5,554 bases of DNA from a virus, in the IMG/VR virus record IMGVR_UViG_3300030418_000012, positions 1 to 5,554 of that record. One strand, 5' to 3'. Of this stretch, positions 1 to 5,554 are shown in pieces. The notes beneath the pieces are model-generated. The model was not told where the DNA came from. It did no database searches and worked only from the letters and a program-made list of their open reading frames with translations. Within the stretch, counting starts at the first letter, position 1; every line of letters starts with the position of its first letter. The position numbers and the translations under genes are program-made.

Positions 1-6
1 GGTGGG

Positions 7-951
7 TTAAGCCGTGGCCGTCGCGTCGATGCGGACGATGGCGGACGGGTTGGTCAGCTTGGTCAGCGAGTAGACGCGGTTGGTTACCAGCGTCAAAGCG
101 GGCGTCGGCTTGTATTCCGTGATGACTTCGCGGCGGAGCTTGCCGGACAAACCAAACGTCTTGATGGCAGAGGCGTCGAACTGCGTCGGGGAGTCTTCCT
201 TGTACAGGACATAGACTTCGTTCTCCATGATGGTCTTGGCGTCGCCGGAAGCGTCGCGGTAGGGCATGGCTGCGATGTAAATATCCCTGATAGGCCGAAT
301 CAGCGCATTGCGGAGCAGGTCTTCGTTGAAGAGGCCGACACTGTTGAATGACACCACCTGTCTGGCAATGGGGTTGGCTCGCAGGAGCTGCCAGGCGTTG
401 ATGCCAAAGACGATGGTGTTAGGCATGTGTCCAGTCGCCGCATTGATGGACAGGATGGCATTATCCAGATCCGTCAGCGGATTCTTCTGTTCGTTGGCCC
501 AGTCCCCGTAACCGGCTGCGGCAGGCAACTGGCTGGTGATGAGCTTGGCACGTTCATATTCATACGAGGTCACAAACTGTGATTCGATGAGCTTGTATTC
601 CGCCAGGGTGATAGCCTGCGCCTTTTCGCGGTTGACGCCCAGCAAGGCGTCCGGAATCGGCAAGGTTAAGCCGTACCCCTGAAGGGTGTCGGTTTCGTTC
701 CTGCCGCGCAGGACGGTCTGGCGGGGAGGTTCGCCCGGTCCCACCTGGATCGGCTGGGCCGTAAAGGCAGATTCCGTGTCCCAGACCTTGTACTGGAAAT
801 TGAGGTCGTAAACCGGGACGATCGGCGCAATGCGGCTGATAATGGAGTTCTCTTCGGTGTTTCCGGAACCCGCAGAATAAGCGGTCAGAACATCGGTGAA
901 CTGGACGGCTGAGCAAAATGGAGTAGCCCTTGTTCTTTGTCTTTCTATTGA
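7..951 (-). CDS. Major capsid protein (HK97-fold, lambda gpE-like class); 3' end firm, 5' end unresolved (coordinates give the maximal stop-to-stop open frame)
   Basis: The minus-strand frame is open from TAA 952-954 to TAA 7-9 (hand-translated). The track ORF 7..744 (245 aa) begins at GTG 742-744, the first canonical start. The in-frame translation upstream (..AVQFTDVLTAYSAGSGNTEENSIISRIAPIVPVYDLNFQYKVWDTESAFTAQPIQ|VGPGEPP..) reads as real protein and brings the size to about 300 aa, typical for a major capsid protein. It is the last gene after protease/scaffold and a small decoration-like gene, which is the usual capsid position. The xAPxVPV...Y.V.D N-terminal motif and overall character match phage major capsid proteins of the gpE-like class as I remember them. 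No search was run. Confidence 0.8.
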   Translation of the reverse strand, partial: SIERQRTRATPFCSAVQFTDVLTAYSAGSGNTEENSIISRIAPIVPVYDLNFQYKVWDTESAFTAQPIQVGPGEPPRQTVLRGRNETDTLQGYGLTLPIPDALLGVNREKAQAITLAEYKLIESQFVTSYEYERAKLITSQLPAAAGYGDWANEQKNPLTDLDNAILSINAATGHMPNTIVFGINAWQLLRANPIARQVVSFNSVGLFNEDLLRNALIRPIRDIYIAAMPYRDASGDAKTIMENEVYVLYKEDSPTQFDASAIKTFGLSGKLRREVITEYKPTPALTLVTNRVYSLTKLTNPSAIVRIDATATA

Positions 952-963
952 TTAGTGTTGATG

Positions 964-1395
964 CTACGCAGCTGCGACCTGGTAGGAGGGGACGAATCCG
1001 ATTTCCACCATGCCCTGTTCCCACTGGGCGTGGATCACGCGGGCATAGACAGTTTCTCCGCTGGCGGCGGCTTTCCATGTTCCGTTGGCCGTGATGGTGA
1101 CGGGCGTTCCGGCATTGATCGTGCCCGGCGTGTCGGAAAGAGCCGCCTTGATCAAGCCGGCGTACATGCCGACGAGGGCGGCGACGCAGGTTCCTTGGTT
1201 GGGCTGCCCTTGCAGGACTACGCCGAGCAGCTGCGTCTGCGTGGGAATGGCGGTCAGCGGCGTGCCGACAAACTCGGGAATGTCCGGGTTGGCTGTCAGC
1301 TCCACGACGGTTCCTTCCTTGCCGCATAGGTCAACACCCTCCGGGGTGTTGAAATAGACGATGGCGCTTTTCTGGGTTACGTTGAGTGATGGCAT
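964..1395 (-). CDS. Small head protein, probable head-decoration protein (DUF2190-like)
   Basis: 143-aa ORF with ATG at 1393-1395 and TAG at 964-966, sitting between the protease/scaffold and capsid genes. It is Gly/Ala/Thr/Val-rich and looks beta-rich (..GKEGTVVELTA..LLGVVLQGQPNQGTCVAALVGMYAGLIKAAL..GTPVTITANGTWKAAASGETVYARVIHA..), like the DUF2190-type proteins found immediately upstream of gpE-like capsid genes. There is no Shine-Dalgarno sequence; the leader is A-rich (ACAAAACA before the ATG). The function call is by position and resemblance only. Confidence 0.65.
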   Translation of the reverse strand: MPSLNVTQKSAIVYFNTPEGVDLCGKEGTVVELTANPDIPEFVGTPLTAIPTQTQLLGVVLQGQPNQGTCVAALVGMYAGLIKAALSDTPGTINAGTPVTITANGTWKAAASGETVYARVIHAQWEQGMVEIGFVPSYQVAAA

Positions 1396-1416
1396 TGTTT
1401 TGTATCAGGTTGGAGA

Positions 1417-2538
1417 TTATCGTTCGGAGGTTACAATGTAGCCTTCTTCAGTGGCTTTCTGACAGGCGTCGTAGCGCTTCATGCCGCCCTTCATCAATTC
1501 GTCCACGCGGTTGGTGAATCCGTCAATGGATTCCTTCTTGCGGAACGGATTGGGAGGTGTCTGGTTGGCACGCCGGTTCAAGGACGTTCTTCCAACTGGA
1601 TTGCGGCGGCTTTCGTCAACAACGTCATGCGACGGCTTTGACTTCGCGGACCGATTGAGAGCCTTGACAAAGGCGCCCAGTGCGGCGGGGCTTTCCCGGA
1701 GAGAGTTTTTCAGCTCTTCCCGGCGTTCTTCCGTGAATTCCTTGCGTTCTTCCTCGTCCAGCTCGTTTTCATACGTGCTGACGGCGTCGTCCACTTCGGC
1801 GTTCACGTGGTCTTTCTCCCGCTTTTCCAGCGAGAGCAGTTCATCGAGGCGTCCGAGGATATCCCTGCTCATGTCGTCGGTGCCGTCAAATTCGACATCC
1901 AGCTTGTCAAGCAGGGAATCAAACAGGGCCCGCTGGGCCTTGTCCATTTCCTTGGACGGATATTCTCTATCGTCGTTTTCCATATTGGTTTCTGGGTTGT
2001 TTTCCCCCTGTTCGGGGCTTTGTTGTTCGCCCCCGGTCTCCGTGGAGGCGGGGGAAGTCTGTCGGTTGACCAGAGGGCGCTTTCCCTTAATTCGGGGACG
2101 GTTGGTCAGGGCGAAGCCTGTCAGCTTGGCGGGGCGGTAAATGCCGCCCTCGAAGGTCATGCCCTCTCCATATTCAGTGGAGGATTGCGTATATTCTTTG
2201 TCGGCCAACATTTGCTGCCCGCGTGGCGTCCATTCGATGAAGCCGTACAACTCCAACGCGCCGGAAGGATCGCGGTAGGTGTCCAGCCGCTTGAGCCATC
2301 CGAGAGCGCGAGTGTCGCGTGAAAGGTCATGGCTCAAGTGGTCGCCGTCAATGAGCATGCCGGGCCCGTCAAAGGTGCGGGAGTTGAATTCGTCCACCAT
2401 GGACTTGATCGCCTGCTCGTCGATGCGGAGCACCGCAGGCCCCTCGCCGTAGTCGACCTCATGATCTCCGCTTTTCTCGACGTGGAACCAGCCGTTGGCG
2501 GGATTGGACAGGTCATTGATTTGTTTGGTACTGATCAT
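1417..2538 (-). CDS. Prohead protease / scaffolding protein (Mu gpI-like N-terminal domain plus acidic coiled-coil C-terminal half)
   Basis: 373-aa ORF with ATG 2536-2538 preceded by AAGGA at a 7-nt spacing, and TAA 1417-1419. The N-terminal 150 aa (..NGWFHVEKSGDHEV..LRIDEQAIKSMVDEFN..GMLIDGDHLSHD..ALGWLKRL..LELYGFIEWTPRGQQMLADKEY..) match the pattern I recall for the Mu-like prophage protein I protease family (W.H..P.G.., ..ID.EH..). A low-complexity linker follows, then a Glu/Asp/Arg/Lys-rich helical region typical of scaffolds. The start overlaps the portal 3' end by 26 nt. Confidence 0.85.
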   Translation of the reverse strand: MISTKQINDLSNPANGWFHVEKSGDHEVDYGEGPAVLRIDEQAIKSMVDEFNSRTFDGPGMLIDGDHLSHDLSRDTRALGWLKRLDTYRDPSGALELYGFIEWTPRGQQMLADKEYTQSSTEYGEGMTFEGGIYRPAKLTGFALTNRPRIKGKRPLVNRQTSPASTETGGEQQSPEQGENNPETNMENDDREYPSKEMDKAQRALFDSLLDKLDVEFDGTDDMSRDILGRLDELLSLEKREKDHVNAEVDDAVSTYENELDEEERKEFTEERREELKNSLRESPAALGAFVKALNRSAKSKPSHDVVDESRRNPVGRTSLNRRANQTPPNPFRKKESIDGFTNRVDELMKGGMKRYDACQKATEEGYIVTSER

Positions 2539-3778
2539 CGCTAAATCCTTTCATGAGCCCGGTATAAATGAGCTGCTGCAGCTGCTCGTAAGCGTCGGCG
2601 GGGATGTATGTGCCTTCCGGCTCCCGGTTGACGGCAGCCGCTGCGGGAGCGGTTTCCCTCGTGTCTTCGATGGACATGCCGATCTTTTCCTCGATTTCGG
2701 TTTTCTCGGGACGGACGCCTCCATCCGCAAGAGCGGCAATTTCCTCGGCCTTCTGCAGAGGCGTTTGGACGGTATCAAAGGTGATTTGGAGGCGGGCCAG
2801 CGGTTCGCCGTCTCCCAGCACCATCGGGCTAATAGAGGAGTTAAAAGCTTCCGCTACCTTGGAGCACACGGCGGAGACCACCGAGTTCCAGCTGTCCGTA
2901 TGGGCAGACCCGGCCAGCGTGCCGGAACCCGATTCGTTCAGGACAGTCAAGGTTCCTGCCATCACAAACCGCACCTGATCCTTGTCGGCCATGTTGATGC
3001 GGGATAGGAAGTAGTTTTCGTTGATGGAGGATGCCTTGAGGGGTTCCGCCGTACAGCCGGGAGGCAGGACGACGGATGCGCCGGACTTGAGTTCTTCGCA
3101 GGCGCGCTCAAGCGCGTCCATGACAGCGGCGCTTGCTTTTTGGGGAGCTGTGATAATAGCCGGGGCGGAGCCGTAGCGGTCCATATGGTTGTCCCACACC
3201 ATCTTGGCGTGGTTGCGCTCAAAGGATGCGCGGGAAGCCGAGAACAGGATGGGGTAACGGTGCTCCATTACAACGAGAGTTTCGTCTTCTACACTTTCCC
3301 CGGTATCGACGCCGATATAACAGTGGGGGTTGAATTGCCACTCATTAAGTTCCCCGGGCCGCACCCAGTAACGCTGGGGAATGAATTCAAACCTCCGGCC
3401 CCAGGCATCCTCAATATATTGGAGATGGGCATAGCCATAGAACAGAGCAGAGGCCAGATGTCCGAAGGCCTGTTGAAGACCGTTGACGGAGTTGTAGAAT
3501 TCTTCCAGGTCCTTTTTCTGCTGCTGGGCTTCCCGGCTGTCGTTGGCTGCATCAATCTTCCAGCCTTGCATAGAGACGCTTTCAATTAACCGGGAGTAGA
3601 GCATGCCCAGAAGTCCGTCCGAGTAGATAACCTCGTCCCAGATGAGCATCTGGCGTGCAAAAGCTCCACGCCGTGCTTCATTTCTTGCGTCAACGAGTGT
3701 TTGCAAGCCGGCACCCTGAAGAGGGTCCCAGTATTCAAACCATTGAGGGCGGCCAGGAGTGCGGCTCCGGTCCGTCAA
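2513..3778 (-). CDS. Portal protein (Mu gp29 / DUF935 family)
   Basis: 421-aa ORF directly downstream of terL in transcription order, with stop TGA 2513-2515. The segment ..VRFVMAGTLTVLNESGSGTLAGSAHTDSWNSVV.. resembles the conserved G.LT....G.GS.A....H core of DUF935 portals. The N-terminal ..GLQTLVDARNEARRG...WDEV...D..L..L...R...V.. resembles the conserved N-terminal block. The first canonical start is TTG 3776-3778, with no SD. The frame stays open upstream to 3947, so the start is uncertain (see findings). Confidence 0.9.
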   Translation of the reverse strand: MTDRSRTPGRPQWFEYWDPLQGAGLQTLVDARNEARRGAFARQMLIWDEVIYSDGLLGMLYSRLIESVSMQGWKIDAANDSREAQQQKKDLEEFYNSVNGLQQAFGHLASALFYGYAHLQYIEDAWGRRFEFIPQRYWVRPGELNEWQFNPHCYIGVDTGESVEDETLVVMEHRYPILFSASRASFERNHAKMVWDNHMDRYGSAPAIITAPQKASAAVMDALERACEELKSGASVVLPPGCTAEPLKASSINENYFLSRINMADKDQVRFVMAGTLTVLNESGSGTLAGSAHTDSWNSVVSAVCSKVAEAFNSSISPMVLGDGEPLARLQITFDTVQTPLQKAEEIAALADGGVRPEKTEIEEKIGMSIEDTRETAPAAAAVNREPEGTYIPADAYEQLQQLIYTGLMKGFSDDQYQTNQ

Positions 3779-3900
3779 GGCTTGCCGGGCGAGGTCTGTT
3801 TCCAGTTCCTTGATTCTGGTCTCCTGTTGGGCGACCAGCTTCGGGGCGTTGAGGATATTTCGGACGGCGTTAAACCTGCGGCGGGAGGAAAGGAAAAGGT

Positions 3901-3974
3901 TGGTTGCAGGGGGAGGAGTTGGACCTCCGACATGAGGACAGGAACCTCATATGATACCGTTTCACCACCCTGCG
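3901..3974 (-). tRNA. tRNA-like gene with a complete cloverleaf, anticodon CCU (nominally tRNA-Arg), atypical initiator-like acceptor stem, CCA encoded
   Basis: Minus strand 3974->3901 reads CGCAGGG TG GTGA AACGGTA TCAT A TGAGG TTCCTGT CCTCA TGTC GGAGG TCCAACT CCTCC CCCTGCA A CCA. All four stems fall in the canonical order and spacing. The invariants U8, A14, G18G19, A21, U33, G53-C61, C56 and A58 are present, as are the discriminator and CCA. The deviations are a C1xA72 mismatch, C55, G37 next to U36, a 7-nt D loop and a 4-nt variable loop. It was folded by hand only; no tRNAscan-SE or Infernal run. Confidence 0.6.
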
Positions 3975-4020
3975 GTTGAATATACATCAACACATATAGA
4001 TATGTTGATATATTGTCAAC
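3975..4020. promoter_or_regulatory. AT-rich island with two tandem 17-bp GTTGA-N7-TCAAC palindromes and promoter-like hexamers, immediately 5' of the tRNA-like gene
   Basis: Plus strand: GTTGA ATATACA TCAAC (3975-3991) and GTTGA TATATTG TCAAC (4004-4020), with centres 29 bp apart. The inner arms ATCAAC (3986-3991) and GTTGAT (4004-4009) form a third inverted repeat. On the minus strand, TTGACA (4019-4014) is followed 15-17 nt later by TATATG/TATGTG, and TATATT (3984-3979) ends 4 nt before tRNA position 1. This is the only AT-rich stretch in the window, and it starts 1 nt after the terL stop codon. Its function is not established. Confidence 0.4.
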
Positions 4021-4021
4021 C

Positions 4022-5368
4022 CTAATATCTGCCGATAGCGCGTTTTTGTGCCGGATGTCTGGCATACCACGCTCCAAGCTCCCGGACAAGCCCGCTGTGC
4101 CGGCGCGCGTGCCAGGCCATGACGAGCGCATCAGCACGGTCGGGAGAGCGGACGCCGCGCTTCGCCATGTCCTCCTTACTCTCGATTTTGACGCGGCCAA
4201 TTGCGTCCGTCTGGAAGCGCGGCGCGACAAGCTGCTCAATGGTGTCCTCATCAATGTCGAGGATGAGCTCTTTTTCCTCGATCGCACGTGCCAATGCTCT
4301 CCATGCCTGGGCGCGGAGGTTGACAAAGGCCTGTGTATCGTCGGCGGGAAATCCGCCCCGGTAGGAGTGCACCGGGAAGCCCTCGGCGCGGAAGTCGTCA
4401 ATGAGGGGGAGTCCAAGGCCGTCTCCATCCGCGAAAATGCGGTCGGCTGGAATGCCGAGTTCGGCGGCCTTGCGGCGGAACCGTCCGCGCGCTCCGACGG
4501 TGTCCGGGTCTGCCCAGTGATCAGCAATGAAGAATCGGTTGCCGTGCCCGGCAGCAAAGACGTTTTCGTCTCCGCCGGCGGCGAAGTCAAAGCCGCCGCA
4601 GGTCTCCCCGGTGTCCAAAAAGGGAGGCGGGTTATTGAACAGCTCCATAAGGGAGCGGCGGGAAATGACGGACTGTCCGTCTAGGTCCGTGAATTCTCCG
4701 AGGATGGCGGAGCGGTAGAAAGAGGATTGCTCTCCGTATTCTTTTTTGATGCGGGCGGCCTTGCCCGGGTCGTTGATCTCAATATGAGGACAGTCCTCGT
4801 ATTTGACCCGGATTTTGTAGTAGAGGGAGGAATTTTTGTGGAAGCAGTCGTAGAAGGTGCCGGAGTCAGCTCCAGGTGACGATGTGATGAACGCATGAAA
4901 GAGCGTGCAGCGGGAAACCGCGGTAAAGATGGGGTCCGGGATGGTCTTGGCTTCGTCGAGGACGTAAAAGACCGGGTCCACGTCGGGCGATATTTTCGGG
5001 TGCCATCCTTCCGCGCGTCCGGCGTTGTCGGTGGAGAATCCCACGGCAAAGCCGCCTTCGGGCGTGCGGATTTCCGTCTTATTGAAGGTCCAGCCTGCAA
5101 AGAAGGGGTTGTCCATGTAGCGGCGCAGCGCGGGAAAGAGCTGCTTTTCCACTTGCATCCAGGACGAGGACGTGACAGGAACCTGTCCCCGCGGAAAACA
5201 GGTGAGAAAGTACAGGATGGCCGGCGCAATGCAGTTGCTTGTCTTGCCCGACCCGTTAGGGGCTACCAAAGCCACGCTTTTTCCTCCCAGGGCAATCTTG
5301 CCGAGGGATAGCGCCTTGATGGCCTCTACCTGCCAGGGATAGGGATCCAGGCGGAGGATGTGACGCAA
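4022..5368 (-). CDS. terL: Terminase large subunit (ATPase plus RNase H-like nuclease)
   Basis: 448-aa ORF. It has Walker A VAPNGSGKTS and Walker B VFYVLDEA. The C-terminal nuclease acidic motifs are GGFDFAAGGDENVF, IFADGDGLGLPLIDDF and RSPDRADALVMAW. It lies immediately upstream of the portal. The start in the track is TTG 5366-5368, with no ATG until aa 71. Stop is TAG 4022-4024. Confidence 0.93.
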   Translation of the reverse strand: MRHILRLDPYPWQVEAIKALSLGKIALGGKSVALVAPNGSGKTSNCIAPAILYFLTCFPRGQVPVTSSSWMQVEKQLFPALRRYMDNPFFAGWTFNKTEIRTPEGGFAVGFSTDNAGRAEGWHPKISPDVDPVFYVLDEAKTIPDPIFTAVSRCTLFHAFITSSPGADSGTFYDCFHKNSSLYYKIRVKYEDCPHIEINDPGKAARIKKEYGEQSSFYRSAILGEFTDLDGQSVISRRSLMELFNNPPPFLDTGETCGGFDFAAGGDENVFAAGHGNRFFIADHWADPDTVGARGRFRRKAAELGIPADRIFADGDGLGLPLIDDFRAEGFPVHSYRGGFPADDTQAFVNLRAQAWRALARAIEEKELILDIDEDTIEQLVAPRFQTDAIGRVKIESKEDMAKRGVRSPDRADALVMAWHARRHSGLVRELGAWYARHPAQKRAIGRY

Positions 5369-5401
5369 GAAGAAGCTGACGGGAAGGTAGGGCCTGCGGT
5401 A

Positions 5402-5554
5402 CTACGGGTTGAGCTTGCCGGTAATGGTTTCGAGCGCGGTCTTCTCGTCTTCCTGGAGCTGGGCCAGCTGCTCGGGGTCCAGGGTGATTTTGCGTTCTAA
5501 TGGCGAGCCGGGAACGCCCGCTACATCCTGCCGGACTCGGTCGCCGAATTTCTC
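5402..5554 (-). CDS. 3' end of an upstream gene running off the window (function unknown; position suggests a terminase small subunit or other packaging protein)
   Basis: The hand-translated minus-strand frame is open from the window edge to TAG 5402-5404: EKFGDRVRQDVAGVPGSPLERKITLDPEQLAQLQEDEKTALETITGKLNP*. It shares strand and frame with terL and has coding-like composition. It is absent from the track because no start lies inside the window. The functional guess rests on gene order only. Confidence 0.45.
   Translation of the reverse strand, partial: EKFGDRVRQDVAGVPGSPLERKITLDPEQLAQLQEDEKTALETITGKLNP

Follow-up and report, generated by a model that had tools for sequence, protein, structure and literature searches.

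We propose that a phage-encoded tRNA with the acceptor end of an initiator and the anticodon CCU reads AGG as the start codon of seven virion genes. On the comparative evidence presented here, we put the probability of this reading at about 0.8. The tRNA and three of the seven genes lie in a 5,554-nucleotide (nt) stretch of viral DNA, positions 1 to 5,554 of IMG/VR record IMGVR_UViG_3300030418_000012, referred to at its full length as the window. All of its genes are on the minus strand and together they form a head-morphogenesis region. Initiation in bacteria and their viruses is thought to use a single initiator tRNA with the anticodon CAU, which reads AUG, GUG and UUG. A first-pass annotation, made from the window alone, had noticed the unusual tRNA together with an in-frame AGG ahead of three genes lacking an ATG start, and had raised AGG initiation as a speculative hypothesis. 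Comparison of related sequences now supports that hypothesis; that initiation itself takes place at AGG is what we infer from sequence. The features on which the argument turns, with lengths in amino acids (aa), are these:

4022..5395, minus strand: terL (terminase large subunit), 457 aa from AGG; its orthologue in the complete genome L047 matches PHROG 2.
5393..5395, minus strand: AGG, putative start codon of terL, context C-AGG; AGG in 93/93 loci.
3901..3974, minus strand: initiator-type tRNA, anticodon CCU (3940-3942), encoded CCA at 3901-3903; detected with ARAGORN and Rfam.
2513..3877, minus strand: portal gene (Portal_Mu family), 454 aa from AGG; Pfam PF06074, E = 1.6e-31.
3875..3877, minus strand: AGG, putative start codon of portal, context C-AGG; AGG in 103/103 loci.
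7..930, minus strand: major capsid gene, 307 aa from AGG; PHROG 1005 major head protein, residue 13 aligning to profile position 14.
928..930, minus strand: AGG, putative start codon of capsid, context A-AGG; AGG in 93/94 loci.

The positions and product lengths that had been given for these three genes were verified, as were the distances within their leaders. In terL, two codons separate the upstream stop from AGG and a TTG follows 9 codons downstream, while in portal the TTG lies 33 codons downstream of AGG. In the capsid gene, AGG follows the stop after 7 intervening codons, and no canonical start is reached until a GTG 62 codons further on. The minus strand has exactly three copies of the heptamer CCGCAGG (5399-5393, 3975-3969 and 3881-3875), and a hand count of internal in-frame AGG codons also held: none in terL, two in portal (3392-3394 and 2657-2659) and two in capsid (700-702 and 286-288). 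Within one window the coincidence of AGG with these leaders is not significant, as had been conceded when it was first described; it becomes significant only because of the comparative data.

Related loci were collected by portal-based searches (45 viral, 56 metagenomic and 1 genomic, with 2 more distant). As the first-pass annotation had suggested should be compared, relatives bearing the tRNA keep AGG at the start position of portal (103/103), terL (93/93 close relatives) and capsid (93/94, the exception being L038 with ATG), while L049, in which the tRNA was not detected, has ATG or TTG. The three genes originally singled out stand, but AGG starts are not limited to them, since at least seven genes were found. 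Elsewhere in the genome, these comprise terS (small terminase) and the genes for a 216-aa protein, a collagen-repeat tail-fibre protein and a 723-aa protein. AGG occupies the start position of g20096 in 74/75 loci, of g20795 in 71/71 and of g28905 in 25/25. For terS, it is present in 78/78 codon-mapped loci and in every row of a 43-locus alignment; simple projection recovers it in 79/89, the ten misses being attributed to a 6-nt in-frame indel just downstream of AGG. The genes interleaved with the AGG genes use ATG, and other late genes (those for the protease/scaffold and the 143-aa protein, the head-completion genes and an amidase) keep it too. Two of them lie in the window and serve as internal controls:

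1417..2538, minus strand: protease/scaffold gene (Mu-I-type) with an ordinary ATG; Pfam Mu-like_Pro; ATG kept in L047 and L049.
964..1395, minus strand: 143-aa gene between protease and capsid, termed the decoration gene in the first-pass annotation, with an ordinary ATG; no family match.

The pattern of variation places the beginning of each reading frame at AGG. Codon periodicity sets in directly past each AGG, and the reading frames are intact. At codon positions 1, 2 and 3, respectively, 16, 14 and 54 columns are variable over the 62 codons following AGG in capsid, 13, 6 and 28 over 33 codons in portal, and 7, 3 and 20 over 22 codons in terL. Upstream of the AGGs, indels of 1, 2, 4, 7 and 8 nt are found and there is no periodicity save that of the preceding gene's 3' end. 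The nearest canonical start varies by locus, falling 9, 22 or 28 codons downstream of AGG in terL and 19 to 95 codons downstream in capsid. Furthermore, at the six start sites mapped by alignment, AGG fills 490 of 490 cells and synonymous arginine codons fill none. The 12 internal AGG codons of the same genes behave differently: every one of them varies, with AGG in 38% of cells, a different arginine codon in 37% and codons for other amino acids in the rest. Since the start AGG is never exchanged for an arginine synonym while the internal AGG is so exchanged in 37% of cells, selection acts on the triplet and not on arginine. The alignments thus show AGG to be the first codon of these reading frames, selected as the triplet AGG and not as a codon for arginine.

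Read-through from an upstream gene was considered and rejected. In the window terS and terL are in one frame, but there are relatives with 1-nt indels between the stop and AGG, and the stops differ; the capsid AGG is preceded by two in-frame stops. A role for AGG as part of the Shine-Dalgarno sequence of a nearby start was likewise rejected, as AGG is not followed by any conserved ATG, GTG or TTG and, in L038 and L049, is itself replaced by ATG.

A lineage in which the tRNA was not detected provides a natural control. L049 and L050, with a portal 61% identical to that of the window and a G+C content of 43.5%, yielded no tRNA with ARAGORN or Infernal, 13 kb of the 24.6-kb L049 contig having been examined. 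Fifteen L049 genes with orthologues were projected onto L047. For portal (TTG in L049) and for capsid, g20096 and g20795 (ATG in L049), the L047 AGG falls exactly at residue 1 of the L049 protein; in terL, it lies two codons from the L049 ATG start. L050 likewise has ATG or TTG at these four codons and, for terL, no more than 2 codons away. Of the remaining starts, six coincide as ATG in L047 and L049, and in another four an ATG lies no more than a few codons off. Given that AGG makes up about 0.5-1% of codons, four exact coincidences among 15 genes would be expected by chance with a probability of the order of 1e-5. Further tRNA-less relatives were sought: a viral scan with the L049 portal returned only an already known locus, and a genome scan returned one Akkermansia metagenome-assembled genome.

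Exchange is also seen among tRNA-bearing relatives. In L038, ATG stands precisely where the capsid AGG is otherwise found (MANLFY versus [AGG]ANLFY), and terL also has an ATG start; AGG is kept at terS, portal, g20096 and g20795. L051 combines an ATG in terL with an AGG in portal. In L038, L049 and L051 alike, the terL ATG is within 1-2 codons of the AGG position. These alignments show that one and the same codon is AGG in some lineages and ATG in others, and that AGG starts co-occur with the tRNA. Distant homologues agree on where the proteins begin: residue 4 of the capsid protein, counted from AGG, is matched by residue 5 of the Pseudomonas phage JBD67 major head protein, and the PHROG profiles for terS and capsid begin at AGG.

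ARAGORN finds a single tRNA in the window, at 3901-3974 on the minus strand with anticodon CCT, and names it tRNA-Arg(CCT). The Rfam tRNA model scores 49.9 bits (threshold 29) at 3904-3974 and marks pair 1-72 as non-standard. In the acceptor stem, C1 stands opposite A72 and is followed by G2-C71, C3-G70, A4-U69 and G5-7:C66-68, with A73 and an encoded CCA. The D stem consists of G10.U25, U11-A24, G12-C23 and A13-U22 and closes a compact, 7-nt D loop; the anticodon stem comprises U27-A43, G28-C42, A29-U41, G30-C40 and G31-C39, with the loop UUCCUGU. The initiator-type acceptor end claimed in the first-pass annotation (C1xA72, G2-C71, C3-G70, A73-CCA) is confirmed by the cloverleaf, by the Rfam flag and by 22 variants, and the lower anticodon-stem pairs it described are found in the cloverleaf. 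A few relatives carry a canonical T loop (UUCAA or UUCGA), and in the D loop (window 3955-3961) G19 varies (G, U, A or C) in three tRNA variants.

Across 102 loci, the tRNA copies represent 22 distinct sequences and all have the anticodon CCU. The cloverleaf shows both-side changes at 9 pairs, with 95% of cells paired. Nevertheless, C1xA72 is unpaired in 22/22 variants, with the other acceptor pairs covarying; this constancy while neighbouring pairs covary marks the mismatch as a selected feature. G2-C71 is present in 21/22 variants (one G-U) and C3-G70 in 22/22, and A73-CCA is invariant. As regards the three G-C pairs of the anticodon stem, 29-41 is G-C in 20 variants, 30-40 in 22 and 31-39 in 20 (the other two being U.G). 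The ends of Escherichia coli tRNAfMet, as given in the first-pass annotation, were correct: metZ, read from NC_000913.3, has CGCGGGGTGG...CCCCCGCAACCA. Over the acceptor end, the window tRNA matches metZ at 16/18 positions versus 6/18 for E. coli argW. The latter, a tRNA-Arg(CCU), has a G1-C72 pair and A at position 20; in the phage tRNA, U20 is invariant across the 22 variants and A20 is absent. Elongators need a Watson-Crick 1-72 pair, and a 1-72 mismatch keeps an initiator tRNA off EF-Tu. Together with R11:Y24, the 1-72 mismatch is also a recognition element of the formyltransferase (PMC9976931).

A scan of IMG/VR for the 5' half of the tRNA, with the anticodon left free, returned 44 CCU copies and 7 other contigs. 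All seven of the latter (L272, L275, L282, L293, L297, L307 and L308) hold CAU tRNAs with C1xA72 and a CCA end, and with A73 in six. Their 5' half is near-identical to that of the CCU tRNA (CGCNGNNTRGTGAAACGGTATCA), including a compact D arm with a 7-nt D loop and U11-A24. The contigs belong to low-GC phage (32-42% G+C), and one of the tRNAs sits in a 17-tRNA array. From their sequences, these seven compact CAU tRNAs look like a phage-borne initiator tRNA subfamily, and the CCU tRNA is best read as a putative CAU-to-CCU derivative of this compact phage family with an initiator-type acceptor end. The two differ in that the former carry CAU in a CUCAUAA loop, whereas the tRNA of the Akkermansia phages carries CCU in a UUCCUGU loop and is accompanied by AGG-start genes. 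U11-A24 had been taken as elongator-like in the first-pass annotation; the pair itself is present, but that interpretation did not survive, since the CAU/C1xA72 relatives share it and it may be a trait of the subfamily instead of an elongator mark.

Several observations nonetheless weigh against the proposed role of the tRNA. The single lineage in which it was not detected consists of L049 and L050, two contigs of one sequencing project. L062 and L100 keep the portal AGG but retain just the last 14-16 nt of the tRNA there (GGTTCCCCTGCAACCA). At g28905, a conserved TTG lies 9 codons past AGG, which makes that start less certain. Within the tRNA, pair 11-24 is U-A in 22/22 variants, as opposed to the A11-U24 of canonical initiators, and position 37 is G in 19/22, a further departure from them. 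Of the three anticodon-stem G-C pairs, only two are present in the variant found in the window (A29-U41, G30-C40, G31-C39); natural initiators with an A-U/G-C/G-C stem exist. Finally, the T loop is UCCAACU (window 3915-3923), with C55 in most copies, and uridine or pseudouridine at position 55 is nearly universal among tRNAs.

The first-pass annotation had considered it most parsimonious that the tRNA is an ordinary elongator tRNA-Arg(CCU) supplying a rare codon, the genes starting at the downstream TTG or GTG. This would accord with the ARAGORN label, with the sparing use of AGG in the window and with the TTGs found 9 (terL) and 33 (portal) codons downstream. However, AGG accounts for 4.4% of internal arginine codons in the window and for 7.5% in both the tRNA-bearing L047 and L049, in which no tRNA was found; AGG is not enriched in the phage genes and the codon-supply rationale fails. 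The window TTGs of terL and portal are CTC, CTT or CTG in many relatives, and a downstream start would cost capsid 62 conserved codons that align to homologue N-termini. Coding periodicity begins at AGG, where no arginine synonym is ever seen, as against 37% at internal AGGs. C1xA72, the lack of A20 and a G37 in most variants likewise do not suit an elongator. We therefore did not uphold this interpretation and regard it as very improbable.

Alternatively, AGG might be the start but be read by host tRNAfMet as a weak near-cognate codon, while the phage tRNA does something unrelated, for example serving in elongation or acting as a decoy for defences that target tRNAs. tRNAfMet can weakly read non-canonical starts, and phage tRNAs are known to counter anticodon nucleases (PMC10264068). 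Against this, pairing of AGG with CAU entails a middle-position mismatch, which is not tolerated by IF3 (PMC11744186), and high output is required of the major capsid protein. Additionally, AGG starts are found only where the CCU tRNA is present, with ATG or TTG where no tRNA was detected, and an invariant 1-72 mismatch would have no rationale in an elongator. This alternative is, in our estimation, improbable. That the AGGs are errors of sequencing, or mark prophage genes decaying into pseudogenes after loss of the ATG, is scarcely credible: a single T-to-G change does convert ATG to AGG, but the same AGG recurs at seven genes across over 100 independent assemblies, the deposited genome CP084202.1 among them, in frames that are intact and with variation dominated by third positions.

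If, as we favour, the CCU tRNA initiates at AGG, the question arises of which amino acid it carries. We lean slightly towards methionine, attached by MetRS, rather than arginine, because A20 is absent, because C34, U36, A73 and the initiator acceptor pairs are retained, and because E. coli MetRS is reported to mis-methionylate specifically tRNA-Arg(CCU) (PMC9976931). In a variant of the same AGG-start system, which we consider possible but would not favour, ArgRS charges the tRNA with arginine via C35, U36 and A73, and the seven proteins begin with Arg or formyl-Arg. Two general properties count against arginine: basic amino acids on an initiator tRNA make poor formyltransferase substrates in E. 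coli, and N-terminal arginine is a bacterial N-degron. MetRS, for its part, ordinarily requires A35. Bacterial ArgRS depends chiefly on A20, with C35 and U36 as strong determinants and A73 compatible (PMC9976931); the latter three speak for arginine, while the main determinant is missing in the phage tRNA, where U20 is invariant, and the reported mis-methionylation points the same way. The A20 rule is one for bacteria in general, taken from the same source, and may not hold for the Akkermansia host.

The surroundings of the AGGs were also inspected, for which two further features of the window are relevant:

5402..5554, minus strand: 3' end of terS; the L047 orthologue matches PHROG 1482; the AGG start lies outside the window.
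3975..4021, minus strand: spacer between terL and the tRNA, with a conserved promoter-like element TTGACA-N17-TATATG and a 22-nt imperfect palindrome.

In six of the seven genes AGG is preceded by C; in capsid the base is A. Position 37 of tRNAfMet pairs with mRNA position -1 (PMC10018350), and a fourth base pair between G37 of the tRNA and C(-1) of the mRNA is plausible. No covariation between tRNA position 37 and mRNA position -1 was seen: variants with A37 still have C at -1, and L051 alone fits (U37 with A at -1). By eye, no Shine-Dalgarno-like sequence was seen upstream of the AGG starts.

In 26/29 distinct upstream sequences, the terS AGG lies 6-8 nt past the -10 hexamer of a sigma-70-like promoter. 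These promoters fall in several mutually non-alignable upstream contexts (L047 10820-10883 and equivalent positions in relatives), which suggests promoter swapping. With the -10 box only 6-8 nt before AGG there is no room for another start, and the terS mRNA is suggested to be leaderless or nearly so. Recruitment of a leaderless mRNA would, we reason, be the kind most dependent on codon-anticodon pairing with the initiator. In the spacer at window 3974-4021, the conserved TTGACA-N17-TATATG-like element is overlapped by the 22-nt imperfect palindrome (82% complementary, 4-nt spacer), and palindromy is retained at 12-17 of 20 arm positions in most relatives. The palindrome may be an operator controlling the tRNA.

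In the mechanism that we propose, the CCU tRNA would be formylated, enter the ribosomal P site as an initiator and pair there with AGG, which would act as the start codon of the terS, terL, portal, capsid, 216-aa, tail-fibre-like and 723-aa genes. Were the AGG starts read by the phage tRNA in this way, translation of the packaging and structural proteins would depend on the phage's own tRNA. Most likely, the purpose would be that a tRNA with a promoter of its own licenses the translation of virion genes. A more elaborate version is offered tentatively and with less conviction, namely an orthogonal initiation code serving as a translational switch. Here, the CCU initiator, transcribed from its own palindrome-flanked promoter, would be methionylated by host MetRS through a C34/U36 'mischarging identity' and formylated. 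Only then would the seven virion genes be translated, including the leaderless AGG-terS mRNA, with the G37-C(-1) interaction as a fourth pair; the principle may recur in other phages.

By sequence, the CCU tRNA is an atypical member of the initiator tRNA family that departs from the CAU and A11-U24 criteria. With bacterial tRNAfMet (E. coli metZ/metY) it shares C1xA72, G2-C71, C3-G70, A73-CCA, a G-C-rich lower anticodon stem and its inferred use at the first codon. It differs in having CCU and not CAU, U11-A24 and not A-U, a compact 7-nt D loop, a UUCCUGU loop with G37 and, in most copies, C55, and also in being phage-encoded and serving only a subset of genes. An ordinary phage tRNA-Arg would similarly be phage-borne, have an arginine-type anticodon (C35, U36) and be called tRNA-Arg by annotation tools; unlike such a tRNA, the present one lacks a 1-72 pair and A20, and its codon is not enriched in the phage genes but fixed at starts. 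As it departs from elongator tRNA-Arg in A20, in 1-72 pairing and in codon supply, we do not class it as a member of that group.

Two known systems come close. Stop codons are recoded in crAss-like and Lak phages by phage-encoded suppressor tRNAs, with late and structural genes affected. There, and by analogy probably here as well, a phage tRNA gives a codon a meaning foreign to the host in late genes. Stop-codon recoding, however, concerns elongation and termination, whereas here an initiation codon would be reassigned and internal AGG keeps its normal place. The AGG-started frames contain no internal stops, and a tRNA that would initiate at a sense codon falls outside the stop-codon recoding family. 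The second precedent comes from the laboratory, where tRNAfMet given another anticodon (the amber initiator CUA and the i-tRNA AAC, for example) initiates at the complementary codon (PMC11744186), which bears out what the first-pass annotation had stated of such mutants. In both cases an altered anticodon would shift initiation to the complementary non-AUG codon, orthogonally to the host. In contrast to those E. coli laboratory constructs, the phage tRNA is natural, persists across over 100 phage genomes and is coupled to a particular set of virion genes. Our literature search, with most subscription journals outside its coverage, found engineered non-AUG initiators and no natural phage example, in line with the earlier statement that none was known.

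If correct, this would be the first start-codon reassignment by a virus, the equivalent at initiation of the stop-codon recoding seen in phages. In prophages of Akkermansia muciniphila, a bacterium that attracts therapeutic interest, lysis-lysogeny control may then have a further, new layer, and an evolved orthogonal pair of initiator tRNA and start codon would be of use to synthetic biology. Akkermansia phage DTMo-2021a (CP084202.1; 31.9 kb; host A. muciniphila NBRC 114322), which is 82% identical to the window, is a complete deposited genome with a named host strain and makes the idea directly testable.

A possible analogue with a different codon was encountered on a single contig, IMGVR_UViG_3300031565_000474 (L164 404-480, minus strand, the same as L255 5102-5178, plus strand). 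It carries an initiator-type tRNA, CGCGGGG...CCCCGCAACCA, with C1xA72 and the anticodon ACU, directly after a 543-aa open reading frame (ORF) taken to be terL from its position alone. In the next ORF, GGAGG-N6-AGT stands two codons past an in-frame stop, the first canonical start being a GTG 7 codons later. L164 may thus be an AGU-start analogue. No relatives of the ACU tRNA were found; relatives in which the homologue of the 543-aa ORF is 34-54% identical are without the tRNA and use ATG.

The source phage of the window is probably a temperate, integrative Akkermansia phage with a Mu-like head module. Its temperate character is judged probable because CP084202.1 opens with an integrase-like ORF, the N-terminus of which we take, by eye and not from a family match, to resemble a tyrosine integrase. 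Pfam gave no match for terL, the capsid gene or the 143-aa gene, and the terminases and capsid were placed by PHROGs instead. Among portal homologues in the databases (P0001-P0040), gene callers give lengths of 352, 378, 397, 421 and 474-493 aa, the long versions beginning at a GTG-GTG within the tRNA gene. This spread is a systematic annotation error for the phage family. AGG starts would explain the portal calls of 352-493 aa as well as the truncated or over-extended capsid, terminase and tail gene calls.

In the metagenome scan, the tRNA is present in 54 of 56 close relatives, the other two keeping just its last 14-16 nt. These remnants lie ahead of the portal AGG, at about 3520-3537 in L062 and about 9960-10000 in L100. 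Upstream of them is a different element with, by eye, a primase/helicase-like gene, a 696-aa coiled-coil protein and a GYF-like protein. It may have arisen by insertion or recombination at the 3' end of the tRNA; it might also represent a satellite-like element that depends on the tRNA, or an assembly error. In L047, two genes at 26516-28825, just upstream of g28905, have a third-position G+C of 0.30-0.35 versus about 0.7 in their neighbours and encode a 615-aa coiled-coil protein and a protein that is GYF-like by eye. This pair looks like a foreign insert, and a similar pair precedes the truncated tRNA in L100. Lastly, host genes for tRNA-Glu(UUC) and tRNA-Cys(GCA) are found about 2 kb past the right prophage end (L109-L131, about 8250-8470), a region that is probably the neighbourhood of the prophage integration site.

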